From: a virus | Length of the DNA: 64,000 bases | Strand: one strand, 5' to 3' | IMG/VR virus record: IMGVR_UViG_3300026290_000001 | Part shown: positions 1 to 60,592 of the stretch, one piece after another | Layout: each line of letters begins with the position of its first letter | Position numbering within the stretch: position 1 is the first letter of the stretch | The notes under the pieces: model-generated | The model's input: only the letters and a program-made list of their open reading frames with translations | Database searches by the model: none | Told to the model about the DNA's origin: nothing | Made by a program: the position numbers and the translations under genes

Positions 1-210
1 CATATACAAGTTAATATTGGTATTAATGAGATATGGTTTAATATCTATGAATCGGAAGTATTGATAACTATTGATACAAAAAAGAAAGAAATTTACGTTG
101 ACTGTGAATTATCAAACCATCATTTAACTAGCAGTATGTTATACGAATTATATATGATTACTGAATTATTAGAAACTAAATGGGATGTGTTTGAGGAATT
201 ATTAAAATAG
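1..210 (+). CDS. 3' end of an unidentified CDS (partial, enters from the left edge)
   Basis: Frame 1 is open from base 1 to TAG at 208-210 (..LLETKWDVFEELLK*). No start inside the window and no recognisable motif. Confidence 0.45.
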   Translation, partial: HIQVNIGINEIWFNIYESEVLITIDTKKKEIYVDCELSNHHLTSSMLYELYMITELLETKWDVFEELLK

Positions 211-224
211 AAAGGAAAGGTAAA

Positions 225-896
225 TTGATTAAAGTAGAAAATATAGAAGTGTTCAATTTTCAAGGGGCTTTAAGGGGCATGCGGAATCCTTTAGAATCTT
301 GGGATAAATCAGATAGTTATTGGAATGACACTACTATTGAAAGTGTCAAAGATTTCATCATTGGTGAAAAAGATATGACACTTGCTTTAAAACTTATTAA
401 AGCAGGAAATGAACATGCAAAATTCATGCGTCAAATTTTTGTCTCAATGGATATTACTGCGCCTTTATATTGGTGGAAGGAAGCAGACACATATAAAATT
501 TCTACAGTAGCAAACAGTACATCCACTATGCACAAAATGGGCAGCAGACCATTAATTTATGAAGATTTTTCTTGGGATAAATTCTTTGAAACAAATTTAG
601 GTAATATTACTGATGAATATATCTACAACTCAATTGAAAAATACCGACAGGATACTTTATCTCACTTAAACGAATTGATAGAAATATGGCAGGAACGAAG
701 AGATAAGAAAATATGGCTGGCAATAATTCAAAACTTACCTTCTTCGTTTAATCAAATGAGAACTTGGACTGGTAATTATCAAGTATTAAGAAATATGTAT
801 TTTCAGAGACGTAATCACAAGTTAAAGGAGTGGAAAGATTTTTGTAAGGTGATTGAGGAGTTACCTTATAGTGAATTGATTATAGTGGAAAAATAA
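225..896 (+). CDS. ThyX-fold (flavin-dependent thymidylate synthase family)-like protein, divergent
   Basis: TTG start after AAAGGAAAGG. N-terminal ALRGMRNPLES and C-terminal NYQVLRNMYFQRRNHKLKEWKDF resemble conserved ThyX segments. The canonical RHRxxSxxxxSxR motif is not evident (STVANSTSTMHK in its place). Confidence 0.4.
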   Translation: MIKVENIEVFNFQGALRGMRNPLESWDKSDSYWNDTTIESVKDFIIGEKDMTLALKLIKAGNEHAKFMRQIFVSMDITAPLYWWKEADTYKISTVANSTSTMHKMGSRPLIYEDFSWDKFFETNLGNITDEYIYNSIEKYRQDTLSHLNELIEIWQERRDKKIWLAIIQNLPSSFNQMRTWTGNYQVLRNMYFQRRNHKLKEWKDFCKVIEELPYSELIIVEK

Positions 897-913
897 AAAG
901 AAAGGAAGAATAT

Positions 914-1444
914 ATGAAAATAATAAATATATCGGGCAAGGCGCAACACGGGAAGGACACAACGGCATTAATTTTAAAAAAGAAATTAGAATCAAAAAAT
1001 AAAAAAGTTATAATAACTCACTATGCAGACCTACTCAAATATGAAGCAAAACAATTTTTTAATTGGGACGGAAATAAAGATGAAAAAGGTAGACAAATAC
1101 TTCAGTATATGGGTACTGATGTAATAAGAAAAATAAATCCTGATTATTGGGTTAATTTCATTAAAGAATTTATGTCAATGTTTGAAAATGAATGGGATTA
1201 TGTAATAATTCCTGATTGCAGGTTCCCCAATGAGATTGAAGTGTGGGGCATTGATAATTGGCCTAATGTATCGGTTAGAATTATTAGAGATAATTTTATT
1301 AGTAATCTCACTCCTGAACAATTAAATCATCCATCTGAAACTGCTTTAGATGATTATGAATTTGATTATTACATATTTAATTCTGATGATATAAATTATT
1401 TAAATAAAGAAGTAGATTATTTAGTTGAATGGCTGGAGGTATAA
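914..1444 (+). CDS. deoxynucleoside monophosphate kinase (T4 gp1-like)
   Basis: N-terminal P-loop ISGKAQHGKDTT, followed by LQYMGTDVIR, YVIIPDCRFPNE and HPSETAL. These occur in the same order as in T4 gp1-type dNMP kinases. Confidence 0.75.
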   Translation: MKIINISGKAQHGKDTTALILKKKLESKNKKVIITHYADLLKYEAKQFFNWDGNKDEKGRQILQYMGTDVIRKINPDYWVNFIKEFMSMFENEWDYVIIPDCRFPNEIEVWGIDNWPNVSVRIIRDNFISNLTPEQLNHPSETALDDYEFDYYIFNSDDINYLNKEVDYLVEWLEV

Positions 1445-2002
1445 ATGAAAAGAAAGTTTTTTATTGATTTTGATAATACAATTATAGATACAACCAACGC
1501 TTTCTGCGCAGTTTATAATGAGCTTTATTGCGATCATCCTAATTTTAAAACAGCAGAACCAGATCAAGTTAAGGTTTACAATTTTTCTGACGAATGTCCT
1601 TTAGTTACAAATGTAGAAGAAATTTTTACTCATCCATTATTCTTTCAATTTGCAGAATTTATAAATCACAATACATATGAAACTCTAGAAAAATTAAACA
1701 ATAAATATCAACTTATAGTATGTTCAATAGGTTGGCCTAAAAACTTAGCATACAAGGCACGTTGGTTGGAAGAAAAACTACCTTTTATTAAAGACTATGT
1801 TCTAATCAGTAATCCTACATGCAAAATGAATAAGAGCATTGTAAATATGGAAGGTGCAATATTTTTGGACGATATACCGTCAAACTTATATAGTTCAAAT
1901 GCTGAAAGAAAGATATTATTTGGTAAGAGATATATTTGGAATAAAGAATGGGATGGAGAATGGGTAAGAAGTTGGAGTGAAGTTGAAGGAAGGTTTTTGT
2001 AG
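1445..2002 (+). CDS. HAD-family 5'(3')-deoxyribonucleotidase-like protein
   Basis: HAD motif I FIDFDNTIIDT at the N-terminus and a later FLDDIPSN motif. Size and layout match NT5C-type nucleotidases. Start overlaps the upstream stop (TAAATG). Confidence 0.65.
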   Translation: MKRKFFIDFDNTIIDTTNAFCAVYNELYCDHPNFKTAEPDQVKVYNFSDECPLVTNVEEIFTHPLFFQFAEFINHNTYETLEKLNNKYQLIVCSIGWPKNLAYKARWLEEKLPFIKDYVLISNPTCKMNKSIVNMEGAIFLDDIPSNLYSSNAERKILFGKRYIWNKEWDGEWVRSWSEVEGRFL

Positions 2003-2054: not shown

Positions 2055-2390
2055 GATTTAGTTAAATTTAGTTATAGGACAATCATAGGTGTTCATAAGT
2101 TTATATGGGAAAATGGTGAACCATATAGACCAAATTATTTAAGTGATTTATTTAAAAAGACAGTTACTGATAATAATTTACCACCAATAAGACTGCATGA
2201 TTTAAGACATACATTCGCAAGTGTAGCAAATGAATTAGGAGTTGGATTATATGATATTAGCAAAGCATTAGGTCATAGTCAAATAGGTACTACTAGCGAA
2301 ATATACACACATATGTTTGATAAGACCCATAAGAAAACCATTAGTAAAGTTGCCGATGCCTTTAAAGAAACAGAAAAAAATAAGGAATGA
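2055..2390 (+). pseudogene. C-terminal remnant of a tyrosine recombinase/integrase
   Basis: Open frame with no usable start near its 5' end. It translates to ..IRLHDLRHTFASVANELGVGLYDISKALGHSQIGTTSEIYTHM.., i.e. the HxLRHT box and catalytic-Tyr segment. The N-terminal two thirds of a normal integrase are missing. Confidence 0.7.
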
Positions 2391-2892: not shown

Positions 2893-3609
2893 CTACTTCT
2901 TCAATTCTTTAAGTAAATATTCAACGGCATTATCAATTAAAACAGCACATTCTATTCGTGTAATACTACTATTAGGATCTAAAATCCCATCGCCTTTACC
3001 AGAAAGTATTTTCTTCTCATATAATCTATCTGCACTTTTTGCTCCCCAATGATCTTTAGGCAAGTCTTTAAAATACTTTGACATTTCTTCAATCACCTTA
3101 CCTTTCAACAATTCCTTCTGAACTTCATTTTTAAATTTATCCCATGTCCAACCTAAATGACCTGCTCTTATTAAACGTGGACAATTTTTTCCATTCCAAT
3201 CCCAATGCTGTCTTAATGATTCTACATTTTTATTTTTAGATTTTAATAATTCTGCCACAAGTAAAACTGCATTTTCTAATGTTTTTTGGTAATTCCCACT
3301 TTCACATATTTCAATTCCTATACTACGTCTATTACCAGCACCACTTCCTCCATCTCCTGCGTGCCAAGCATTTTCAAATAAAGGAATACATTCAATTGCT
3401 TGTTTTTCATCAATGGCAATATGATAACCTGTAGAAGATGTATTTGAAGGATTGGTTAAATAATCTCTTTCATTTCTTGCAGTAGATTTTGAATTCCCTG
3501 TGTTGTGAATAGTAATATATTCCCAATCCATTTTATATTTTGGACGTTTATTAGAATTCATAGGAATGTGATCTATTACATAAGGAAAAGGTAAATTAAA
3601 TTTACTCAT
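2893..3609 (-). CDS. endolysin: N-acetylmuramoyl-L-alanine amidase (Amidase_2/PGRP) with C-terminal SLH domain
   Basis: Catalytic domain segments YITIHNTGN, GYHIAIDE, WHAGD and NCP. The C-terminus FKDLPKDHWGAKSADRLYEKKILSGKGDGILDPNSSITRIECAVLI matches the S-layer-homology motif. Confidence 0.85.
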   Translation of the reverse strand: MSKFNLPFPYVIDHIPMNSNKRPKYKMDWEYITIHNTGNSKSTARNERDYLTNPSNTSSTGYHIAIDEKQAIECIPLFENAWHAGDGGSGAGNRRSIGIEICESGNYQKTLENAVLLVAELLKSKNKNVESLRQHWDWNGKNCPRLIRAGHLGWTWDKFKNEVQKELLKGKVIEEMSKYFKDLPKDHWGAKSADRLYEKKILSGKGDGILDPNSSITRIECAVLIDNAVEYLLKELKK

Positions 3610-5112: not shown

Positions 5113-6117
5113 TTATTGATAGAAATATTGAGTATAACTTTGTTGCTTGTGTTCAAACGTTTGTTTTGCGTAAATGCCCGTAGTTTGAATATCATCATGA
5201 CCTAAAAGTTCTTGTAATACCGACATTGGACAACCGTTATTTAGCATCAAGGTTGCGAAAGTATGTCTGAGCATATGGGGATGAGTTCTCTTGTCAAGCC
5301 CTGCACGTTTACCTATTGCTGCTATTTCTCGTTGAATACCTCGATTGCTTAATCTTCTATATTCCTGCCGTTCTGTTACAAATAATGCTTCACAGTCATC
5401 CTTACGACTTTCAAGATATTTTTTAAGGTAAATTGCAGCTCTAGCAGAATAGAATACAATTCGCTCTTTGTTTCCTTTGCCTAATACCTTAATCGTCCGA
5501 TTTGATTGTCCTATATCATCTTTATTTAGTGCCGATATTTCAGATAATCGACAACCTGTTGAATACATAATTTCAGTTAATGCTTTTTCTCGCAAAGTGA
5601 AACAACTTTCACGGAATAGTTCCAATTCTTCAATTGTTAATGCCTTTGCCATTGCTTTTCCCACTTTATAAGGTTTAATTCTAATCATCGGATTTTCTTC
5701 AATAATCTGTTCCTCACAAAGCCATTCAAAGAAACTGCGAAGTACTGAGCGAATTGTCTCAACAGTACTTTTAGCATTTACTGTTGGGTCGCTTTCCCGA
5801 TCATCCAGATAGTTAATTATGTCCTGCTTGGTTATTTCATTTACTGGTTTTTCTTCGGTTCTATCGGTAAATATTTTAAGATGAAGTCGATAATTATCAA
5901 TAGTTATTGGACTTAATCCTTGCCGTTTTTTATCCTTCAAAAACAGTTTTATGTTTTTCCGCAAATTATAATATTCTGGATCGCTGTTTTGTTTTATAAC
6001 TCTGTATTCATCAAGAATGGAGGCTAATTGATTTTTAGCCTCCATCTTATTCATGCCTTTTTCTATGATTCCATCTACAATTTTAGCATATAGCTCATAA
6101 TTGAGATTAGGGTGCAT
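5113..6117 (-). CDS. tyrosine recombinase (XerC/XerD-like phage integrase family)
   Basis: N-terminal SAM-like core-binding domain (ITIDNYRLHLKIF, TIRSVLRSFFEWL). Catalytic segments TGCRLSEI, HPHMLRHTFAT and LGHDDIQTTGIYA. RBS AAAGGAGG upstream. Confidence 0.9.
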   Translation of the reverse strand: MHPNLNYELYAKIVDGIIEKGMNKMEAKNQLASILDEYRVIKQNSDPEYYNLRKNIKLFLKDKKRQGLSPITIDNYRLHLKIFTDRTEEKPVNEITKQDIINYLDDRESDPTVNAKSTVETIRSVLRSFFEWLCEEQIIEENPMIRIKPYKVGKAMAKALTIEELELFRESCFTLREKALTEIMYSTGCRLSEISALNKDDIGQSNRTIKVLGKGNKERIVFYSARAAIYLKKYLESRKDDCEALFVTERQEYRRLSNRGIQREIAAIGKRAGLDKRTHPHMLRHTFATLMLNNGCPMSVLQELLGHDDIQTTGIYAKQTFEHKQQSYTQYFYQ

Positions 6118-7843: not shown

Positions 7844-8686
7844 TTACCTCACCACCTTTAGCTGAATTGGCAAACTAACTTCAGGTTTATCCATCGCATA
7901 TAATGTTATAGAATTATTAGCAGTTGTTACACGATAAATTTTACCCCACTCATTTACTCGTTCTTTATCTGTAGCAAATGTGCCACTCATTACTACGTCA
8001 ACTATAGGATTGTCATTTGACGATATTCCAGTTACCGTTTGCGTTTTCGTATATGGGGCTTCTGTACCTGTCCAAGTAGTATCAAGTGTTGTCGTAAGCG
8101 TAGCGTGATATACGTGTCCTAATTTACTTATTGTCGCACCATCTGCCAGATGGTTAGCAAACTTTTTCCCAACCCCACTAACCAAAGGTCTTTTATCGAC
8201 AATTATATTTACAGTTTTATCCGCATTTGTACTAATAGTACCAATTAATAGACTTCCATCTGTAATTGTTCCATCTATACTACTAGCAAAATTTCCATCA
8301 TTTTTAAGATATATAGTATAGGTTATACTGGCCGATACTGGATTAATAGTAAAAGTTGTATCAGATGTTTTAGTTATAGTATTTATTGTATTTCCACTAA
8401 ATGTTTCACCAGTACCACTAGCAATAACTATACTTAATGTATCTGTACCACTCGTATAAAATGCAGATTTTATTCTAAATGGACTATCCAATTCTAATGA
8501 ATTTAATAAAAATCTCGCATCTTTCCATGTTGCTCCTAAATCTCTAGGATCAGTACCACCTAAAGTAACATTTGCATCATCAGCAACATGGATAATATCT
8601 AAACCACTATATTTATTTCTAATTTCTGCTACTTGCTCATCTGTATGTATAGCAAATACTTTGCTATTTTTAATTACACAAATCAT
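7844..8686 (-). CDS. tail fibre protein (short paralogue)
   Basis: Residues ~70-181 are homologous to residues ~106-219 of the neighbouring 587-aa fibre (..TDTLSI.I.SG.GE.F....NTITKTSDTTF.INPVSAS.TY.IYLKNDGNF..). The C-terminal domain is distinct. Confidence 0.6.
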   Translation of the reverse strand: MICVIKNSKVFAIHTDEQVAEIRNKYSGLDIIHVADDANVTLGGTDPRDLGATWKDARFLLNSLELDSPFRIKSAFYTSGTDTLSIVIASGTGETFSGNTINTITKTSDTTFTINPVSASITYTIYLKNDGNFASSIDGTITDGSLLIGTISTNADKTVNIIVDKRPLVSGVGKKFANHLADGATISKLGHVYHATLTTTLDTTWTGTEAPYTKTQTVTGISSNDNPIVDVVMSGTFATDKERVNEWGKIYRVTTANNSITLYAMDKPEVSLPIQLKVVR

Positions 8687-8705
8687 AAATTTATATCTCC
8701 CTCCT

Positions 8706-10469
8706 TTACACTATTATCCATGAACCTTTATTTCCCTCAGAATTAGGTTCAGGAGAGAAAATAGGACTGCCACTATAATTAGAACAACGTACATATCCAT
8801 TGTTATATGCAAATATATCAATTAAACCTGCATCACCAACATTAGAATTTGAAGCAAATAAAGAACCTTCTTCACAACAATCTATATTGTATTCCACATT
8901 GTTTTTTGCAATAATTCCCGAACTAAATCCTTTTCCACCATTATTAACTGTTAATCCTGATTTATTTCCACAAACACATATATTTTCTGCCATCATACCC
9001 CCACCAGTAGAATCATAAGCACCTTTTTCAGAATTACCATTTGCTATACAATTATTTATATAAATCCCTGCGAAATTGGAACATTCATAACCATTTTCAT
9101 TATTGGAAGATGCTGTATATGGTGCAGTAATACCTGCTCTGTTAGTTACAAAAAAACCAGATTTAAAACCAGATACTCCAACATTTGTACCACAAGTTAT
9201 GCTTGCGCCTGTTGTTGATAATATTCCATAATTAGTACTAGCATTAGAACCAATAATTGCAACATTATTTAATAATCCTAATTCAGAACGGTCAGCAACA
9301 ATACCATTACAATTTGTAAATTTTAACGTTGTAGTTAAAACAACAAAATCTCCACCCGTTAATGCAACAGCAGGGAATGGAGTACCTTGAAAAGTATTTT
9401 TAACCGTTACTACGTTTCCATTTATATTTATAATTTCATACATTCCACGTAAAACTTCATGATTACCTGTGCCTGTAGTATTTTTTATAATAGCATATTG
9501 TCCTACTTGCATACCTACTGCACTAGCAACTGTTATAGGTACAGACCAATTTCCAGCAGTATCAGAAACACTACCTACGTTTGAAACGGTTGTGGCAATA
9601 GGAGTAGCACCAATTATTCTTATATTAGAACCATTAACATGATTTATTTTAAGTTGAGAAGTATGTTCATACATTTCTGTTAATAAAGAAATAGTTACAG
9701 TAGTTGAACTAGTTATACTAGCAGTTTTTATACTATCTAAAGCATTTGGTATTGTAGTAAAATCACATCCAGTAGAGCCAACAGTTATAGTTTTATTGGC
9801 ATCTATAATAGTATCTGTTAAATGTTTAATAAATTCACTACCTACAGCACTAACTAAAGGTCTTTTATCAGTAATTGTATTTATAGATTTATCTGCATTG
9901 GTACTAATTGTTCCTATTAAAATACTTCCATTTGGAATACTACCATTTGTACTTTTATCAAAATTACCATCATTCTTTAAATAAATATTATAGGTCACGC
10001 TAGCACTTACTGGATTAATATTAAAAGTAGTATCAGATGTTTTTGTAATAGTGTTTAAAGTAGTACTATTAAAACTTTCACCTGAACCCGAAGTAATTAT
10101 TATTGATAAAGTATCTGTTACTGAATTATATTCAGCAGATTTTATCTGAAACGGATACCCATATACATCTTCTACATTACTTTTTAAACTATCATGATCA
10201 TATGCTGTAAATAATCTTCCTATTATCGTTCCATTACTCCATGTCTGTGCTGTCCCTTGAAATCCCCTAGTTACACCAACCAAACTACTACCACTTTTAT
10301 CTGTATATAAAATAGTTTCTGCATTATTACCAGTTCCTATAGTAGCAAGATTAGGTGCATTGGGAAAAACTGAAATATCAGTTACGGGGATGGTAGTTGC
10401 AATACTATTTATATCAGAAGAAAGTGTTGTAAGAGGGGAGTTAATTTTAGCATTATACATTGTTTCCAT
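8706..10469 (-). CDS. tail fibre/tailspike with C-terminal parallel beta-helix
   Basis: N-terminus of the widespread prophage-fibre type (ATIGTGNNAETILYTD..VTRGFQGTAQTWSNGT..TAYDH). The C-terminal half consists of Gly/Asn-rich ~22-aa turns (NCNGIVAD, NVAIIGSNAS, GASITCGTNVG, NNCIANGNS), typical of PbH1 beta-helix depolymerases. Confidence 0.7.
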   Translation of the reverse strand: METMYNAKINSPLTTLSSDINSIATTIPVTDISVFPNAPNLATIGTGNNAETILYTDKSGSSLVGVTRGFQGTAQTWSNGTIIGRLFTAYDHDSLKSNVEDVYGYPFQIKSAEYNSVTDTLSIIITSGSGESFNSTTLNTITKTSDTTFNINPVSASVTYNIYLKNDGNFDKSTNGSIPNGSILIGTISTNADKSINTITDKRPLVSAVGSEFIKHLTDTIIDANKTITVGSTGCDFTTIPNALDSIKTASITSSTTVTISLLTEMYEHTSQLKINHVNGSNIRIIGATPIATTVSNVGSVSDTAGNWSVPITVASAVGMQVGQYAIIKNTTGTGNHEVLRGMYEIININGNVVTVKNTFQGTPFPAVALTGGDFVVLTTTLKFTNCNGIVADRSELGLLNNVAIIGSNASTNYGILSTTGASITCGTNVGVSGFKSGFFVTNRAGITAPYTASSNNENGYECSNFAGIYINNCIANGNSEKGAYDSTGGGMMAENICVCGNKSGLTVNNGGKGFSSGIIAKNNVEYNIDCCEEGSLFASNSNVGDAGLIDIFAYNNGYVRCSNYSGSPIFSPEPNSEGNKGSWIIV

Positions 10470-11687
10470 TTACTCTATCACCCCTTCATAATTAACCTTC
10501 CAAACATCATTAACTTTGCCATAGATGCCAATGATAGGTTTCCATTTTCCATTAATTTTTACATAAACATTATTAATATTTTTCCAATTACCATTTACTT
10601 TATAAATCAGCGCAGTATTGTAAACTGAAATATCATTAATATTTAATAATAAATTATCATTAGCATTGGTTTCTACAAATACATTTGTAGTTTCATGTAT
10701 ATTTATATTTAAACTATCATTAGAATTAATATCAACATTTTTGTGAATATAACTTTCATTAATAGACAATCTAATTGAATCAGTTATATTATTAGATGCA
10801 GTTAAATTATTTACATTATCCGTTGAAGAAATATTTAATGTATCACTAACATTTGGCAAGGCAGTAACATTTGCATTGTCAGCACAATAAATATTAATAG
10901 CATCATTTTTATTAAACTCATTAATAGTTAAATCTATGCCATTAATATCTAAATTTTCAGATGTGCTAATATCTACCAATATATTTTTGGTTTCATTTAC
11001 ACCTATATTTAAATTATCACCAGTATTTATATTAGTAATTAATTGACTTTCTTCGGTAATATCTAAATATAAATTGTTTTCAATATCCTTGGATAATACT
11101 AATAAAGAATCTTCTTGTAGATTGATATCTAAAGAATCTTCTAGGTTTAAAGAAATATATGATGATTCATCTATTGTTAAATTAATATCATCTTCTACTT
11201 CAATGTTTTTATCTAAATTATTAGTTTCACTTAATGATAAATCAAGATCGTCATAAGTTTTTATATTGTAAGCATCAGGAGAATCCCATATAGATAATTC
11301 TTGTATATTTATAGACAAAGAATCATTAACATTTATATTTACATTTAATGATTGCGAATCACTTACAGTTAAGTTAAGTGCATCTTGAAGTGTATTAGTT
11401 ACTTCTAAATCCGAAACATCATTTAGTGTAATTATAGGCGGGTCAGTACCTGAAGCATTTACAAGCCTTTCACTTTCCTCTACAGATGTAATAATTAAAT
11501 TGTCAGAAACACTAAAAGTCCAAATTTTATTACTTTCTTCAGTTATAGTTATTGTTAATTCATCATGTACATTTATTTCTATAACTGCTGATTCTGTAAT
11601 ATTTAGTGTTAATTCATCCGAAGAGGAAGATGATATATCGTTTAATGTGTTGAAAGATGTTTGGTTAAAACGTCCTTGATTAAACAA
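10470..11687 (-). CDS. repetitive acidic fibre-like structural protein
   Basis: About 25 iterations of an 11-12-aa unit of the form D-x-L-x-I-x-I-x-E-x-S (DELTITITEES, DSLSINIQELS, DSLDINLQEDS, DSLNINIHETT). The C-terminus has a triple NGxWK motif. Confidence 0.5.
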   Translation of the reverse strand: MFNQGRFNQTSFNTLNDISSSSSDELTLNITESAVIEINVHDELTITITEESNKIWTFSVSDNLIITSVEESERLVNASGTDPPIITLNDVSDLEVTNTLQDALNLTVSDSQSLNVNINVNDSLSINIQELSIWDSPDAYNIKTYDDLDLSLSETNNLDKNIEVEDDINLTIDESSYISLNLEDSLDINLQEDSLLVLSKDIENNLYLDITEESQLITNINTGDNLNIGVNETKNILVDISTSENLDINGIDLTINEFNKNDAINIYCADNANVTALPNVSDTLNISSTDNVNNLTASNNITDSIRLSINESYIHKNVDINSNDSLNINIHETTNVFVETNANDNLLLNINDISVYNTALIYKVNGNWKNINNVYVKINGKWKPIIGIYGKVNDVWKVNYEGVIE

Positions 11688-11747
11688 TAAATATCACCTC
11701 CTCATTAATTAAAAATAGGACTATATATAATTTTTATATTAATAATA

Positions 11748-12128
11748 TTAACTAATATTAATTGTAAGTGTTACGGTAAGAAGCCAGTTTCCACCGGATT
11801 TTGTGCCTAAATTTTCCACCTTCCTATTCAACATAACTCCTCCACTAGAAGCATTAAAAACTCCCCATTCCTGCCATGCAAAATTAGCATCAGTAGTTCC
11901 AAAACTAGATTTAAATACTAACTGATTATTAGTTCTTGTAGGGAAAGTGGCTTCCATGCCCTTTCTTACTTTGTTAGAACTTGCTTGTAAATCAATCTGT
12001 GAAGCTGCAAAAGCAGTAGTAGAATCACCGACTCCGATATGCGAATTTGTCGAATTAAAGAATACGGGTGAATCATCATTAATTATACAAGCTGCTATAA
12101 AATCTCTACCACTATTTGTTAATGCCAT
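11748..12128 (-). CDS. conserved phage tail-associated protein (function unknown)
   Basis: 126 aa with the pattern MALTNSGRDFIA..IGVGDSTTAF..Q.DLQA..NKVRK..ANFAWQEWGVFN..GGVMLNR, recalled from prophage fibre clusters. No named family assigned. Confidence 0.45.
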   Translation of the reverse strand: MALTNSGRDFIAACIINDDSPVFFNSTNSHIGVGDSTTAFAASQIDLQASSNKVRKGMEATFPTRTNNQLVFKSSFGTTDANFAWQEWGVFNASSGGVMLNRKVENLGTKSGGNWLLTVTLTINIS

Positions 12129-12192
12129 TTTTATAATTCCTCCTTAAATTTATATTTGTAAAATAATAAATAATTTAATAAATATTTAAATA

Positions 12193-12372
12193 TTAAATAT
12201 TAAAACCCATATCTTTTAAATTATCTTCTGATGCCATAAAATCATCTTCAGATATAATAACTTCAATGGGTTTTACCAAACCTTTATCAATTTGTTCCTG
12301 TGTTGCCCAATCAGGATATTTTTCTAATCTGAGCGTTGCTTTCATGCTAATTCCCATTTTTTCATTATTCAT
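12193..12372 (-). CDS. small hypothetical protein (59 aa)
   Basis: Not in the ORF track. ATG at 12370-12372 downstream of AAGGAGG; translates MNNEKMGISMKATLRLEKYPDWATQEQIDKGLVKPIEVIISEDDFMASEDNLKDMGFNI*. Confidence 0.4.
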   Translation of the reverse strand: MNNEKMGISMKATLRLEKYPDWATQEQIDKGLVKPIEVIISEDDFMASEDNLKDMGFNI

Positions 12373-12435
12373 AAAATCTAATAATTACCTCCTTATTTTT
12401 CTAGTATATTTATATTAATAAAATAATTAATATCT

Positions 12436-12942
12436 TTATTCTTGATAGACGAACCAAATGTCCCCATCCTCACCGTCTTCATTACTAGGTTGTACAGTAG
12501 AAAATATAAAATGGTGTGCAGAAGTTTGTATTATATCTTCAAGTGTTTCTTTAATATCATAAGAACCACTACCATTAGATTGAAAACTACTATAAATCCT
12601 ACTTGCGGGTATATAAACTCCACCACTACCATAAAAAGAAAATTGTAATATACTTCCACTTACATCAGGATGAAAATAAACGTATCCATATACATAATCT
12701 ACTTTATATGTACCAATTTTACTTTCTGTGTCTAATGTAGGAAAACCATCAACAATTTCATACCACTGGTAAGTTTCCAATCCAAAATTACCCATGACCT
12801 GAACTTTATTTTGCCTATGCGGAATTTCTGATAATATTACTAATCCATTTATTATTTTTTTATATTCACTTAATGAAACTAAAGGTTGCTCATTATTACC
12901 TCTTCGTATTGAAATAAAAGGATCATAAAAAATTTGATTCAA
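12436..12942 (-). CDS. tail/baseplate-associated protein
   Basis: TTG start after GGAGGTG. 168 aa with YKVDYVYGYVYFHPDVSG, resembling N-terminal anchor domains of fibre/baseplate proteins. Call rests mainly on position. Confidence 0.45.
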   Translation of the reverse strand: MNQIFYDPFISIRRGNNEQPLVSLSEYKKIINGLVILSEIPHRQNKVQVMGNFGLETYQWYEIVDGFPTLDTESKIGTYKVDYVYGYVYFHPDVSGSILQFSFYGSGGVYIPASRIYSSFQSNGSGSYDIKETLEDIIQTSAHHFIFSTVQPSNEDGEDGDIWFVYQE

Positions 12943-14397: not shown

Positions 14398-14681
14398 AAA
14401 ATCAAATCCTTTCGGATAAATACTCTGCTTAAAAGCAGGTTATGCGTATCTATATACTATTACCATATATAGAATTCGTCCTCATCTCGACAATGATAAA
14501 ATAGCTTATATGTATATCACACCGAGCCTTACCCTCCAACTCTACTTAGTGATATACGATAGAGCAATGGTCTGATGCGTCAACCAAAGGTATCATAACT
14601 ATTCTATCGTAGTATAAATTTCTCTATACTAAGTCTGGTGAACTTAGACTTTAGAAGCCTCCGACTTTAGTCGGGGGTAGT
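14398..14681 (-). ncRNA. candidate IscB omega-RNA scaffold
   Basis: Non-coding and visibly GC-richer than its surroundings, directly upstream of iscB. Minus-strand helices: CCCCCGAC/GUCGGAGG, AAGUCU/AGACUU, long-range CUACGAUAGA/UCUAUCGUA, CUGCU/AGCAG, and AUCC-GAAA-GGAU just before the start codon. Confidence 0.6.
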
Positions 14682-14927
14682 TCACTCTATTTCAGGATTG
14701 ATAGATAAATCATCTTTGCTTGTACTATTTACATTAGATAAATTATCTTCATTGGACAAATCATCATTAATAATTTGACTTAATTCGTCTATTTTAGAAC
14801 TTAATTTGATAATCTCTATCTGATACATATTATTTTGTAAACATAAAGTGACTACATCTAAGGGCAAATTACTATTGTTTATTAACTCTGCCAGTTTAAT
14901 ATTAAAATCACTTATAATAAAAATCAC
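14682..14927 (-). CDS. hypothetical protein
   Basis: 81-aa acidic ORF in the minus-strand tail array. Its TGA stop (14682-14684) directly abuts the omega-RNA-like region. Confidence 0.4.
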   Translation of the reverse strand: MIFIISDFNIKLAELINNSNLPLDVVTLCLQNNMYQIEIIKLSSKIDELSQIINDDLSNEDNLSNVNSTSKDDLSINPEIE

Positions 14928-14984
14928 TTCCTTTATATTATTTTTTTATCTTATTATATTGTTATTTTTTATCTTACTATCTTG

Positions 14985-54102: not shown

Positions 54103-54188
54103 AGAATTTCACTCTAAATTCAACGTGAATATGTTTTATGAAGTTCTATATGGTTAGAGTAGCAAAAGCGTTTTTAGAGTGAAATTCT
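54103..54188. repeat. perfect 16-bp inverted repeat with 54-nt spacer
   Basis: AGAATTTCACTCTAAA (54103-54118) pairs with TTTAGAGTGAAATTCT (54173-54188). The right arm overlaps the methyltransferase stop codon. Confidence 0.8.
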
Positions 54189-55014
54189 ATTGATTAGATA
54201 GTAATTTTTCTTTATGTTCCCTTACACGTTTAATTGCTAAATTAAAATATTGATCATGTGGTTCACTCAGACTCCATTCAAAACCTATGTAATTTCTTTC
54301 AGTATTTAAACAAGCTATCGCTGTTGTGCCTGAACCTATGCAATTATCTAAGACTAAATCTCCTTCATTTGTATATGTTTTAATTAGATATTCAAATAAT
54401 TTTACTGGTTTTTGAGTGGGGTGTGGTAATTTTTCTTTAGAATTTGAATTAACTATAGGATTATATATTACAGTTGATGGATTTTTTAATTTTGCATTGT
54501 ACACATCATAACTTCTTCCAGCATAATCTGTATTAAAAACAATTTCATTATCTTTTCTTTTTGAGATAGAACTTCTAAAATTAATATTATTATTTTCTTG
54601 CATTTGTTTCATTCTTTCGCTTTTACGTTCTATCATTTGTCTATTATATGTATATTTATTTTTTGCAAATATTAATATATTTTCATGATATTTTAAATGT
54701 CTATATTTTGCATTTGCAAAATTACTCGCTCTATCTTTTTCCCATATTAGTTCTTCTTTAAACCAATCAATATTACTACAAATTAATTTGCTTGTAAATG
54801 GTTGACTTGCTGTTAATACTATAGCACCATTATCTTTTATAATTCTTTTATACTGTTCCCAAAGTTTATCAAAAGAAATTAAACTATCCCATTTTGCTAT
54901 TGTAGTTCCATAAGGTAGATCACATAAAATCATATCTATACTTTTATCAGGTAATAAACACATACCATTTTCACCAATACAATCTTCGTTATAAATAGTA
55001 TTTAATTTAATCAA
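54187..55014 (-). CDS. DNA methyltransferase (beta-class N6A/N4C type), orphan
   Basis: Motif IV CDLPYGTT comes first, then HPTQKPVKL and motif I DNCIGSGTTAIAC. No adjacent restriction gene. Confidence 0.85.
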   Translation of the reverse strand: MIKLNTIYNEDCIGENGMCLLPDKSIDMILCDLPYGTTIAKWDSLISFDKLWEQYKRIIKDNGAIVLTASQPFTSKLICSNIDWFKEELIWEKDRASNFANAKYRHLKYHENILIFAKNKYTYNRQMIERKSERMKQMQENNNINFRSSISKRKDNEIVFNTDYAGRSYDVYNAKLKNPSTVIYNPIVNSNSKEKLPHPTQKPVKLFEYLIKTYTNEGDLVLDNCIGSGTTAIACLNTERNYIGFEWSLSEPHDQYFNLAIKRVREHKEKLLSNQ

Positions 55015-55089
55015 TTATGTATTATTCCTCCTATATTTATATTACTAAAATAATACTACGACTCAAAATTAAAAAATTATTTCTTACTC

Positions 55090-55413
55090 TTAATCTTTTT
55101 TCTCTTTCTTTTCCTTAGATTTTTTTGCCTTTTGTAATCTTTCTCCCATTTCTTTCTTTTGAGCCTCAGTTAACTTTTTCTTTTTGGTTGGTGCTCTAAA
55201 TGAAATCAACTTCTTATCACAAACAAATTCTTTTCCCACTAATTCATTATCTTCATCAAATTGATCACTAACATGCTGATATGATTCAGGATACTGTTTA
55301 CAAAGTTTATCCAGTTTGTTTAAATCTGCACGAATAAAAGTTATTATTTGTGCTTTTTTAGAATCTTCATCAATCCCTACGCAAGTATAACGCTCCATTT
55401 TTTCTAATGCCAT
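55090..55413 (-). CDS. hypothetical lysine-rich protein
   Basis: 107 aa with a basic C-terminal tail (KKKKLTEAQKKEMGERLQKAKKSKEKKEKKD). Confidence 0.4.
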   Translation of the reverse strand: MALEKMERYTCVGIDEDSKKAQIITFIRADLNKLDKLCKQYPESYQHVSDQFDEDNELVGKEFVCDKKLISFRAPTKKKKLTEAQKKEMGERLQKAKKSKEKKEKKD

Positions 55414-55454
55414 ATGTATAAATTCCTTCTTTCATTTTTATATTAATAAAATAA

Positions 55455-56204
55455 TTAAAATTCCACTAATCTATTTTTCGCTATTTCACAATATTTTTCT
55501 TCTAATTCAATTCCAATACATTTACGTTTAAGATTTCGTGCCGCCAATAAAGTTGTTCCTGAACCACAGGTAAAATCTAAAATAAGATCGTTTTCATTTG
55601 TGTATGTATTAATTAAATATTCCATTAATTCTAATGGTTTTTGTGTAGGATGAAATAAATTATTATTTGGATTTGCAAAATTTAATATATTTTTAGGATA
55701 ACCTTTAGCATTACTATTTCCAAAATGCTTTTCTTTCCCAAAAGTATATTCTCCATCCACTTTATTTTCTCTACTTGGTCTATTATTATTAAATTCTCCA
55801 TAAATTAACCCTTGCGGATTATAAATGCATTGATTTTTATAAAAAACTAAAACATCTTCTATTGCTCTCATTGGTTGTTTTTTAGCATTTAAATGACCAC
55901 TTGGTTTAGTTTTTATCCATTTCCAATCATATTTATATTCTTTAATATTACTAATTCTTAAAAAACTACTAAAAGGTTCTCCTCCAAACAATAATGTAGG
56001 TGTTGTATTTTTTGTTAATTTATGTAATCTATCCCACATGTCATTAAATTTGATAATTTCATCCCATTTACATTTAGTAGTACCGTATGGTGGGTCAGTA
56101 ATTATTGCATCAAATTTAATACCTTTCTCAATAATCTTATCCATTACCTCTAAACAATCACCTTGAAATAATCTTATGTATTCGTCTTTATAGTATAATT
56201 TCAA
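55455..56204 (-). CDS. DNA methyltransferase (beta-class), tandem paralogue 1
   Basis: ITDPPYGTT, HPTQKPLEL and LDFTCGSGTTLLAA. TTG start. The N-terminal ~48 aa and C-terminal ~66 aa are near-identical to the gene at 56249-57034, while the centre differs. Confidence 0.9.
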   Translation of the reverse strand: MKLYYKDEYIRLFQGDCLEVMDKIIEKGIKFDAIITDPPYGTTKCKWDEIIKFNDMWDRLHKLTKNTTPTLLFGGEPFSSFLRISNIKEYKYDWKWIKTKPSGHLNAKKQPMRAIEDVLVFYKNQCIYNPQGLIYGEFNNNRPSRENKVDGEYTFGKEKHFGNSNAKGYPKNILNFANPNNNLFHPTQKPLELMEYLINTYTNENDLILDFTCGSGTTLLAARNLKRKCIGIELEEKYCEIAKNRLVEF

Positions 56205-56248
56205 TTTATGTAAATATATCTCCTTTCATTTTTATATTAATAAAATAA

Positions 56249-57034
56249 TTAAAATTCCACTAATCTATTTTTCGCTATTTCACAATATTTTTCTTCTAAT
56301 TCAATTCCAATACATTTACGTTTAAGATTTCTTGCCGCTAACAATGTTGTCCCTGAACCACAGGTAAAATCTAAAATAAGTTCGTTTTCTTTTGTGTATG
56401 TATTAATAAGGTATTCTAATAGTTCAATTGGTTTTTGAGTCGGATGTAATTTTTTCCCTGACATACTAGCGTTGCTTAAAGTATAAATACTTGTTGGATG
56501 TCTATCTTTATATTCTTTATGCCCCAAGTCTTTTATGGTATGTCCTTCTCTTAATGTGCTATTTCTTGAACCATAAAATGTTTTATTAACTTTTTTTATA
56601 TCATCTCGTTTTGTTTTTTGAGGATAATAATTCATTTCATTACCTTTTGAGAAAACTGCTTTTGCTTTACTAAAAATTAAAATATTTTCATGTACTCTAC
56701 CTACTTGAAAATTCATCATTTGAAAATTAGATGGTTTTACTTTATCCCAAATAATTTCATATCTAAATAGTTGAGGATTACTCATAATTAAAGCACTCGT
56801 AAAAGGTTGAGAACCATTCAATACTATTGCACCTTTATCTTTGATTAATTGAGTAATTTTATCCCACATCTTATCAAAAGGAATTATCGTGTCCCATTTA
56901 CATGCTGTAGTACCATAAGGTGGATCAGTTATTATCGCATCAAATTCAATACCTTTCTCAATCAATTTATCCATCACTTCTAAACAGTCACCTTGAAACA
57001 ATCTTATGTATTCATCTTTATAGTATAATTTCAT
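56249..57034 (-). CDS. DNA methyltransferase (beta-class), tandem paralogue 2
   Basis: ITDPPYGTT, HPTQKPIEL and LDFTCGSGTTLLAA. The last 43 aa are identical to paralogue 1. Confidence 0.9.
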   Translation of the reverse strand: MKLYYKDEYIRLFQGDCLEVMDKLIEKGIEFDAIITDPPYGTTACKWDTIIPFDKMWDKITQLIKDKGAIVLNGSQPFTSALIMSNPQLFRYEIIWDKVKPSNFQMMNFQVGRVHENILIFSKAKAVFSKGNEMNYYPQKTKRDDIKKVNKTFYGSRNSTLREGHTIKDLGHKEYKDRHPTSIYTLSNASMSGKKLHPTQKPIELLEYLINTYTKENELILDFTCGSGTTLLAARNLKRKCIGIELEEKYCEIAKNRLVEF

Positions 57035-59713: not shown

Positions 59714-60592
59714 TTAAATAGCACAATTATTCATACTTTTTCTTATATCATCTTGTGAAGGATGTAAATATATTTGAGTAGTAGAAAGCGAACCATGACC
59801 AAGTATCTGCTGAAGAGCCTTGAGATTCCCACCATTTTCTAAAAAATTAGTAGCAAATACATGTCTTAATGAATGACAAGTTATTACATTACTATGTTTG
59901 TTAAATATTCTTTCAACACTACTACTTTCTAATTTTTCACTTTTGTTGCTTAAAAATAAATATTTACTTCCTAATACATTATAAGCATACTTATAATTCT
60001 TTCTATCATCAATCGCTTTTTTAATAATCTCAATAGCAGTTTCATTCAATGGTATTATTCTTTGCTTACTTCCCTTACCAATAACTTTAAGATTCTTTCT
60101 TTTAAAATTAATATCATCCAACTCAATATTTAATGCTTCAGATATTCTTAAGCCAGTATTCAGAAGTAAAGCAACTATATAATAATTCCTATCACATTCA
60201 TTCTTCCTTATTCTTTCCATAAATTTTATTGCTTCAGATTTAGTAATACTAGTTGGAGATGTTAATTGTTTTTGTATGCGTATATAATCCTGTCCCAATA
60301 TCACCAAACTATCCTGATACCCCATCTTAACCAAAAATTCATTATAACTTTTCAAAGCACTTAACCTTCTATTTATTGTCTTAGCATCAACATTTCTTTC
60401 TTTAAGTAAATATTCCTTATACTCCGCAATCTGATCTCTACTAATAATCTGGGGTTCAATTCCAAAATACTCAAAAAACAAACCAATATCATGAGAATAA
60501 GATTTTATTGTATTGATAGATTTACCTTGTTCTACTAGGTGGTTGATGTATTCGGTTAAATAATTTTCATTTGCAACGAGATTCATATTCAT
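59714..60592 (-). CDS. tyrosine recombinase (XerC/XerD-like)
   Basis: Core-binding N-terminus (SINTIKSYSHDIGLFFEYF). Catalytic segments TGLRISEAL, HSLRHVFAT and LGHGSLSTTQIYLH. Confidence 0.9.
   Translation of the reverse strand: MNMNLVANENYLTEYINHLVEQGKSINTIKSYSHDIGLFFEYFGIEPQIISRDQIAEYKEYLLKERNVDAKTINRRLSALKSYNEFLVKMGYQDSLVILGQDYIRIQKQLTSPTSITKSEAIKFMERIRKNECDRNYYIVALLLNTGLRISEALNIELDDINFKRKNLKVIGKGSKQRIIPLNETAIEIIKKAIDDRKNYKYAYNVLGSKYLFLSNKSEKLESSSVERIFNKHSNVITCHSLRHVFATNFLENGGNLKALQQILGHGSLSTTQIYLHPSQDDIRKSMNNCAI

Follow-up and report, generated by a model that had tools for sequence, protein, structure and literature searches.

The left end of the window, as we call the whole 64,000-nucleotide stretch of viral DNA analyzed here, carries three tightly packed plus-strand genes, as a preliminary description had reported (Table 1). 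ORF1 encodes a 223-residue protein from a TTG start with a ribosome-binding site, GGAAAGG, ahead of it; ORF2 encodes 176 residues, and the ATG of ORF3 (185 residues) abuts the ORF2 stop without a gap. No terminator-like sites were found on the plus strand between positions 1 and 2002, and the small ORF 5′ of ORF1, the last of four that separate a dUTPase gene from the ThyX-like gene, appears to be co-transcribed with the trio. The window DNA is also present on a 138-kb ENA contig (L004), on which the genes beyond the left window edge were examined: a RecD2-type helicase, small ORFs, NrdD, NrdG, the dUTPase and the four small ORFs precede the trio on one strand. Convergent holin and SLH-amidase lysis genes lie downstream, and tail, head and packaging-size genes occupy the minus strand of the remaining window, with a G+C content of ~29%. 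In a megablast search with the first 6.2 kb, no phage record matched. The source is a large phage (roughly 138 kb) of a low-GC anaerobic Firmicute, and the trio closes an early replication/nucleotide operon at its distal end.

Table 1. Positions of the trio and of associated genes, in window coordinates except where contig L004 is named.
Feature	Position	Strand	Remarks
Small ORF 5′ of ORF1, 3′ part only in window (87 aa on the full contig)	1..210	+	
ORF1: ThyX-fold protein of an unnamed family (phrog_6721); putative divergent thymidylate synthase	225..896	+	TYK...NSTSTMH replaces RHR...S.RY
ORF2: T4 gp1-like deoxynucleoside monophosphate kinase	914..1444	+	PF21448, phrog_139, PDB 1DEK; P-loop and PDxR motif aligned
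ORF3: NT5C-family (HAD) 5′(3′)-deoxyribonucleotidase-like protein	1445..2002	+	PF06941, PDB 3BWV; motif I, motif IV
PF01555 N6/N4 DNA methylase	54187-55014	-	
PF01555 N6/N4 DNA methylase	55455-56204	-	
PF01555 N6/N4 DNA methylase	56249-57034	-	
dUTPase	L004 8435-8863		
Four small ORFs	L004 8929-9986		
ThyX-like gene	L004 10001-10672		

The two downstream genes proved to be what they had been taken for. ORF2 scores 52.2 bits against the Pfam DNMK model PF21448 (cut-off 27.1), matches phrog_139 with an E value of 1.6e-36 and resembles 1DEK, the structure of the T4 dNMP kinase (E 2.6e-6). Its P-loop, SGKAQHGKDTTA, aligns with that of the T4 enzyme (MKIINISGKAQHGKDTTA with MKLIFLSGVKRSGKDTTA), as befits a T4 gp1-like dNMP kinase. 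Similarly, ORF3 is NT5C-like, with 40 bits against PF06941 (cut-off 24.8), a weak match to the putative deoxyribonucleotidase 3BWV (E 3e-3) and, in alignment to that structure, both HAD motifs (motif I, D8-F-D10-N-T; motif IV, D-D). Gp1-type kinases (phrog_139) and NT5C enzymes also occur in phages without an obvious modification pathway, and we know of no sequence marker of gp1-type specificity for a modified dNMP such as hm-dCMP. By itself the phage nucleotide trio is ordinary; it is the family behind ORF1 that merits follow-up.

ORF1 has no match to Thy1 (PF02511) in Pfam at E<=1 and none in NCBIfam, and its PHROGs match is to phrog_6721, of 'unknown function' (E 3.4e-68). Sequence searches of the PDB with ORF1 itself (phmmer) or with a 42-sequence profile returned no ThyX at E<=10. 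In the fold search, however, only ThyX-family structures matched, and hhalign comparison of the ORF1 family with ThyX gave Prob 71% and E 3.6e-5 over 184 columns. Both alignments in this comparison were broad, one of Thermotogae proteins and seven phage ThyX genes and the other a diverse set from the ORF1 family; an earlier run with two narrow alignments had given only E 0.15. The T. maritima ThyX reference sequence is identical to PDB 1KQ4 / 1O26. Pfam Thy1 is weakly matched by 15 of 42 ORF1 relatives (best E 1.2e-4), one relative (P0257) passes its cut-off with 29.3 bits against 24.8, and a broad ThyX HMM run over all loci selected these ThyX-like genes alone. A distant member in the C. perfringens phage XP41-N3 reads E-R-Y-R ... 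S-Q-S-T-M-H, and its R-Y-R is a plausible intermediate, judged by sequence, between the RHR of ThyX and the TYK of the ORF1 family. The earlier characterization of ORF1 as an atypical ThyX-like protein is thus upheld.

The RHRxxSxxxxSxR motif had been reported missing from ORF1, and the aligned stretch indeed reads T89-Y90-K91-I-S-T-V-A-N97-S98-T-S100-T-M102-H103. From T. maritima ThyX to ORF1, hhalign pairs R78, H79 and R80 with T89, Y90 and K91, and N85, E86, S88, R90 and Y91 with N97, S98, S100, M102 and H103; the register near S98/S100 is uncertain by one residue and is supported by ESTRY in the ThyX of phage F365 versus (Q/T)STMH in the ORF1 family. Ahead of the motif, R28, S30, D41, G52 and H53 correspond to R20, S25, D50, G61 and H64, and T55 and E58 to K66 and R69. 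Beyond it, R147 corresponds to I168, N163 to N184, R165 to Q186, N169 to N190, R174 to R195, H178 to H198 and E182 to E202. ORF1 therefore does not carry the full catalytic set of an ordinary ThyX. R78, R90 and R147, which from the ThyX literature we take to hold the phosphates of dUMP and FAD, map to T, M and I, so plain ThyX chemistry cannot simply be assumed. R174, presumably the arginine that reads the uracil ring, has its counterpart in R195.

The replacements are themselves conserved. In a 55-sequence family alignment D50, G61, Y90, S98, S100, H103, R195, H198 and E202 are invariant, and R20, S25, D30, K66, R69, T89, M102 and N97 nearly so. Over 155 copies (75 bacterial and 80 viral) some 30 positions are invariant or near-invariant, polar residues lining the ThyX active-site region among them; R195 and H198 are kept in all 155 and E202 in 153. 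From these alignments, the uracil-reading side of the pocket is kept in the family, and the phosphate-holding arginines are swapped for another set of residues that is just as fixed. Bacterial and viral copies have identical invariant residues, all of them present in ORF1, so phage and bacterial proteins should share the same chemistry. We also considered that ORF1 might be a defective copy, with L165 where close relatives have R, and rejected this, as the position varies across the wider family.

The ORF1 family is a very large unnamed sister family of ThyX. Clustering at 90% identity gives more than 8,000 matching clusters, and 4,788 representatives match with E<=1e-3 when the clusters are drawn at 50%; none of the members checked bears a functional name or Pfam domain. 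The copies of Merdimmobilis hominis and Lachnoclostridium are labeled 'hypothetical protein' at NCBI, and the 27 GenBank phage records with a member, from phages of Clostridium, Enterocloster, Clostridioides, Fusobacterium and Desulfovibrio, are all hypothetical or unannotated at that gene. We found no description of the family in Pfam (2025), NCBIfam (June 2026), PHROGs or the literature searched. Fusions are seen in a few members, the partner being DUF1599, a guanylate-kinase-like domain or DUF3310; the annotated T7 gp1.7 nucleotide kinase has DUF3310 as its C-terminal domain. When C-terminal extensions (39 of 150 representatives) were clustered, four recognizable domains emerged, namely DUF3310 twice, DUF1599 and the guanylate-kinase-like domain; the other extensions, mutually unrelated, may be gene-calling artefacts.

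The family is not restricted to phages. A one-genome-per-species scan yielded at least 599 confirmed relatives among at least 600 pattern matches, and the best 80 of these at least 599 relatives are nearly all from Clostridia. Isolates with a member include Anaerocolumna jejuensis, A. xylanovorans, Amedibacillus dolichus, Merdimmobilis hominis and [Eubacterium] hominis. Their surroundings are those of housekeeping genes on a chromosome and not of a prophage: the ThyX-like gene follows TatD and a short-chain dehydrogenase, precedes NadE, Pth and Mfd, precedes RNase H and MutS, or follows an M23 peptidase, and chromosomal surroundings of this kind were seen in Anaerocolumna, Amedibacillus, Merdimmobilis and many MAGs. 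Seven further loci, in which the ThyX-like gene is followed by a P-loop kinase and a FolC-like Mur ligase, are probably large phages.

Within the chromosomal set, a dihydrofolate reductase (DHFR) gene (PF00186, E 8e-42) lies directly 3′ of the ThyX-like gene at three loci (L103, L156 and L161). A search seeded with the L161 protein delineated a Lachnospiraceae subfamily with more than 80% identity across 120 clusters. Ten places were looked up in three Lachnospiraceae lineages that differ in their flanking genes, and DHFR follows immediately at nine of them; at L186, the remaining one, the contig ends within the next gene, which is unannotated. The ThyX-like and DHFR genes abut or overlap by 1-4 nt at L161 and L181-L183, the overlap at L181-L183 being 4 nt. 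A thymidylate synthase gene immediately 5′ of folA is the classic thyA-dfrA layout. Chromosomal, folA-linked copies with identical invariant residues point to ordinary thymidylate and folate metabolism. They also bear on the idea that ORF1 is a ThyX relic without catalytic activity, doing no more than binding a nucleotide as a regulator or sponge. Loss of the canonical motif would suit such a relic, but we regard it as highly improbable given the near-invariance of some 30 positions, active-site-region polar residues included, and the close identity of the Lachnospiraceae copies; conservation of this kind together with folA operon linkage is typical of an enzyme.

In viruses, the neighborhood of the gene is one of deoxynucleotide supply. 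Among 80 IMG/VR loci, for which ORFs were called and clustered in 10-kb flanks and the cluster representatives annotated, same-strand neighbors include NrdD (27), dUTPase (25) and NrdG (24). A guanylate-kinase-like kinase is present at 14 loci, usually as the immediately next gene, followed in frequency by DUF3310 and NAD-dependent ligase (13 each), a PF05014 nucleoside deoxyribosyltransferase-like protein (9) and dCMP deaminase (7); DNMK-type kinases and replication proteins also recur. NrdDG, dUTPase, dCMP deaminase and kinases are the company expected of a dUMP-consuming enzyme that hands a dNMP to a kinase. The phage PMBT24 encodes a dUTPase, NrdDG and a dNMP kinase. Beside the ThyX-like gene, three unrelated types of kinase are common, whereas nucleotidases are not. 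Homologs of ORF2 and ORF3 both adjoin the ThyX-like gene at only two of ~160 loci, in this phage and in a Clostridium sp. MAG (L097; 64, 75 and 52% identity for the three proteins).

Canonical thymidylate synthases are scarce around these genes. With E. coli ThyA (verified against the PDB), T. maritima ThyX and E. coli FolA as tblastn queries, the window and L004 gave no credible match to ThyA, canonical ThyX or DHFR, and neither did PMBT24 or the first 57.8 kb of the 59.2-kb phiCTP1. XP41-N3 gave no ThyA or DHFR and a chance-level ThyX match of 42 residues (E 0.074). Since many phages do without any thymidylate synthase, the absence of ThyA and ThyX from three phage genomes is weak evidence. 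Within ±10 kb flanks, ThyA or canonical ThyX is absent from 159 of 160 loci. At the exception, L043, a ThyA-like gene (PF00303), truncated, precedes the ThyX-like gene by two genes and a carbamoyltransferase follows the latter; the locus also has a dUTPase and a dCMP deaminase. ThyA-like and ThyX-like genes beside a carbamoyltransferase would fit a modification role at that locus.

Such a role had been proposed, as a speculation, for the trio itself. Spelled out, ORF1 would make a C5-modified pyrimidine nucleotide (for instance 5-hydroxymethyl-dUMP), ORF2 would phosphorylate it and ORF3 would remove the canonical competitor, giving non-canonical DNA. The systematic remodeling of the ORF1 active site is compatible with this, as is the placement of a kinase 3′ of, or fused to, the ThyX-like gene at many loci. 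Furthermore, the third position is filled by NT5C or by a PF05014 nucleoside deoxyribosyltransferase / dNMP hydrolase-like protein, both able to destroy dNMPs, one member carries a fused DUF1599 ('nucleotide modification associated domain 1'), and the gene set of L043 can be read in the same way. We nonetheless consider the proposal quite unlikely. The same invariant residues recur in highly conserved, folA-linked chromosomal copies, and modified thymine is, to our knowledge, not known in bacteria that carry the gene. A combination of TS-like enzyme, kinase and canonical-nucleotide remover is not conserved, the full trio being confined to two phage lineages among the ~160 loci, and XP41-N3, a small phage, has the ThyX-like gene without an annotated kinase or nucleotidase. 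No ThyA-type hydroxymethylase, glycosyltransferase or similar gene was found near the trio, nor were further modification enzymes within ±10 kb of the ThyX-like gene in this phage. Three methyltransferases had been cited in support; all are ordinary PF01555 N6/N4 DNA methylases, which are post-replicative enzymes, encoded 52 kb from the trio. The PMBT24 paper reports nothing on a non-canonical base in virion DNA. Overall, the gene identities, the atypical ThyX-like character of ORF1 and its missing motif stand from the preliminary description, and the assignment of the trio to a non-canonical base pathway is disfavored. For phage biology, the presence of an ORF1-family gene should not be taken to indicate DNA hypermodification.

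A different alternative keeps the folate connection and gives up thymidylate. ORF1 could be a ThyX-fold pyrimidine or folate enzyme that acts on a non-phosphorylated uracil compound or in another folate step, with its links to DHFR and to nucleotide genes reflecting a shared cofactor pool. The loss of the three ThyX phosphate-binding arginines and of R165 could be explained in this way; the conserved DHFR pairing proves a folate link only, and the absence of host thyA and thyX applies to the ±10 kb flanks. We judge such an enzyme unlikely, since the equivalent of the uracil-reading R174 and its helix neighbors are invariant, the dUMP sources (dUTPase and dCMP deaminase) and dNMP kinases nearby fit an enzyme that consumes dUMP and produces a dNMP, and the slot directly 5′ of folA is the classic place of thyA.

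On balance we favor, by a little, the reading of ORF1 as a divergent ThyX-superfamily thymidylate synthase, with the trio, dUTPase and NrdDG forming a dTTP/dNTP supply line. The phage dUTPase would supply dUMP, which ORF1, in its most likely job, would convert to dTMP, taking the one-carbon unit from a folate. Next, the gp1-like kinase would form dTDP and other dNDPs, and the NT5C-like phosphatase may trim or balance the dNMP pool. In ORF1 the fold of ThyX is retained, and so are the residues on the uracil side (counterparts of R174, H178, E182, N163, S88 and N85); the positions at which ThyX binds the FAD and dUMP phosphates carry T-Y-K for R-H-R, M-H for R-Y and the new K66 and R69. We infer the substrate and the product, and likewise any continued use of flavin.

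More tentatively, the family could represent a third, mechanistically distinct thymidylate synthase, built on a ThyX scaffold that has lost RHR, R90 and R147, has its own invariants (K66, R69, T-Y-K and S-x-S-T-M-H) and is genetically coupled to DHFR, as ThyA is. On this reading the enzyme may oxidize folate to dihydrofolate, or use flavin in a new manner or not at all. Two enzyme families, ThyA and ThyX, are generally taken to account for thymidylate synthesis, and when antifolate sensitivity, thymidine auxotrophy or drug targets are predicted from the genomes of gut anaerobes, the prediction relies on finding one or the other. If the idea is correct, a third, unannotated family (~4,800 clusters at 50% identity) would alter such predictions in many Clostridia. 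Numerous Clostridia of gut and rumen would then depend on it for housekeeping dTMP, their phages having borrowed it, and it would be a natural experiment on how a ThyX scaffold works without its signature motif.

Comparison with characterized systems places the three proteins at differing distances from known enzymes. ORF3 shares HAD motifs and a family HMM match with the mitochondrial/cytosolic 5′(3′)-deoxyribonucleotidases (PF06941; 3BWV), but the similarity is weak, and a PF05014 protein fills its place at other loci. ORF2 resembles T4 gp1 (1DEK; PF21448) in its P-loop (SG....GKDTTA), its C-terminal PDxR region and its position directly 3′ of a TS-family gene; the T4 enzyme is longer (241 residues against 176), and a member of this family need not mean modified nucleotides. 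The succession from a TS-family enzyme to a dNMP kinase and a canonical-nucleotide remover recalls T4 (gp42, gp1 and dCTPase) and the SPO1-type hmU phages, whose pathways, however, rely on hydroxymethylases of the ThyA fold and occur in phages only, whereas the ORF1 family is also found on bacterial chromosomes.

With ThyX (PF02511; T. maritima 1O26, H. pylori 3AH5), ORF1 shares the fold. It falls short of the Pfam and NCBIfam models, however, and in its family RHRxxSxxxxSxRY gives way to (D)TYKxxTxxNSxSTMH, which is just as invariant; conservation is lost at R147 and R165, and K66 and R69 are new invariants. The structure 4P5A, annotated as ThyX in the PDB and matching T. maritima ThyX directly by sequence (E 3.7e-34), is, we take it, PolB, a ThyX-like UMP/dUMP C5-methylase of polyoxin biosynthesis. 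PolB retains the ThyX motif and FAD; the ORF1 family is far more divergent and far larger. Bacterial members differ from ThyX also in their pairing with DHFR, which is typical of ThyA. The ORF1 family has no invariant cysteine able to serve as the ThyA nucleophile, and the gene upstream of DHFR has here the ThyX fold and not the ThyA fold. In arrangement, the likeness to the ThyA-FolA (thyA-dfrA) operon of Firmicutes is close: a TS-like gene is followed by DHFR with stop and start touching or overlapping, in an order conserved over lineages with different flanks.

Among the loci compared, ThyA-like and ThyX-like genes occur together only in the viral contig IMGVR_UViG_3300045988_142712 (L043; region 7900-12800), where a truncated ThyA-like gene, a dUTPase, the ThyX-like gene, a carbamoyltransferase and a dCMP deaminase stand in a row, a candidate pyrimidine-modification cluster. 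The preliminary description had also pointed to three methyltransferases in the window, and these are indeed present as tandem PF01555 genes (54187-57034, minus strand), two of the three with DPPY at residue 37. They are ordinary post-replicative methylases.

Some neighbours of the ThyX-like gene recur across loci. DUF3310, which Pfam still labels as of unknown function, often adjoins it and is occasionally fused to the ThyX-like protein; the same domain is found in the T7 gp1.7 nucleotide kinase (residues 122-184, E 4.5e-23; gene 1.7, T7 locus L089, 467-1054). In several viral contigs the ThyX-like gene is followed immediately by a homologue of Tad3, an inhibitor of Thoeris (PF25185, E 1.6e-32). 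In contigs from uncultured Clostridia MAGs (range L099-L108, about 10001-12556), the order ThyX-like, 191-aa P-loop kinase, 426-aa FolC-like Mur ligase is conserved, and these regions look like large phage or prophage. A phage-borne gene resembling folylpolyglutamate synthase adjoins the thymidylate synthase-like gene there.

Features of the window and of the compared loci
Sequence	Feature	Coordinates	Strand	Basis
Window	Tyrosine recombinase, C-terminal catalytic part	2058-2388	+	Open frame without start codon; HDLRHTFASV, then LGHSQIGTTSEIYTHM
Window	Endolysin, Amidase_2 and SLH (S-layer homology) domains	2893-3609	-	Pfam matches to identical gene of L004 (138-kb ENA contig, same DNA)
Window	XerC/XerD-like tyrosine recombinase, full-length	5113-6117	-	PF00589, N-terminal SAM-like domain
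Window	DNA methyltransferase	54187-55014	-	PF01555 (N6_N4_Mtase)
Window	DNA methyltransferase	55455-56204	-	PF01555 (N6_N4_Mtase)
Window	DNA methyltransferase	56249-57034	-	PF01555 (N6_N4_Mtase)
Window	XerC/XerD-like tyrosine recombinase, full-length	59714-60592	-	PF00589, N-terminal SAM-like domain
L043	ThyA-like, truncated	8555-9166		PF00303
L043	dUTPase	9171-9587		
L043	ThyX-like	9968-10666		
L043	Carbamoyltransferase, 572 aa			PF02543 / PF16861
L041 (and four similar loci)	Tad3 homologue	10726-11436		
L002, Enterocloster phage PMBT24	"RNA-dependent RNA polymerase", 831 aa	923-3418		Annotation
L187, Clostridium phage XP41-N3	Distant ThyX-like family member	14417-14977		Motif E-R-Y-R...SSQSTMH

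The partial recombinase, flanked by the early operon on one side and convergent lysis genes on the other, is an integrase remnant; the same phage genome encodes two full-length XerC/XerD-like recombinases besides. Because the endolysin carries an SLH domain, it hints at a phage host with an S-layer.

Close to the dNMP kinase and ThyX-like cluster of PMBT24, a dsDNA phage, lies the 831-aa gene whose polymerase annotation looks doubtful. In XP41-N3, going by annotation only, an NTP pyrophosphohydrolase is the sole further nucleotide enzyme, with no kinase, RNR or dUTPase annotated. The motif of its distant family member is intermediate between ThyX's RHR and the TYK found in the ThyX-like family.
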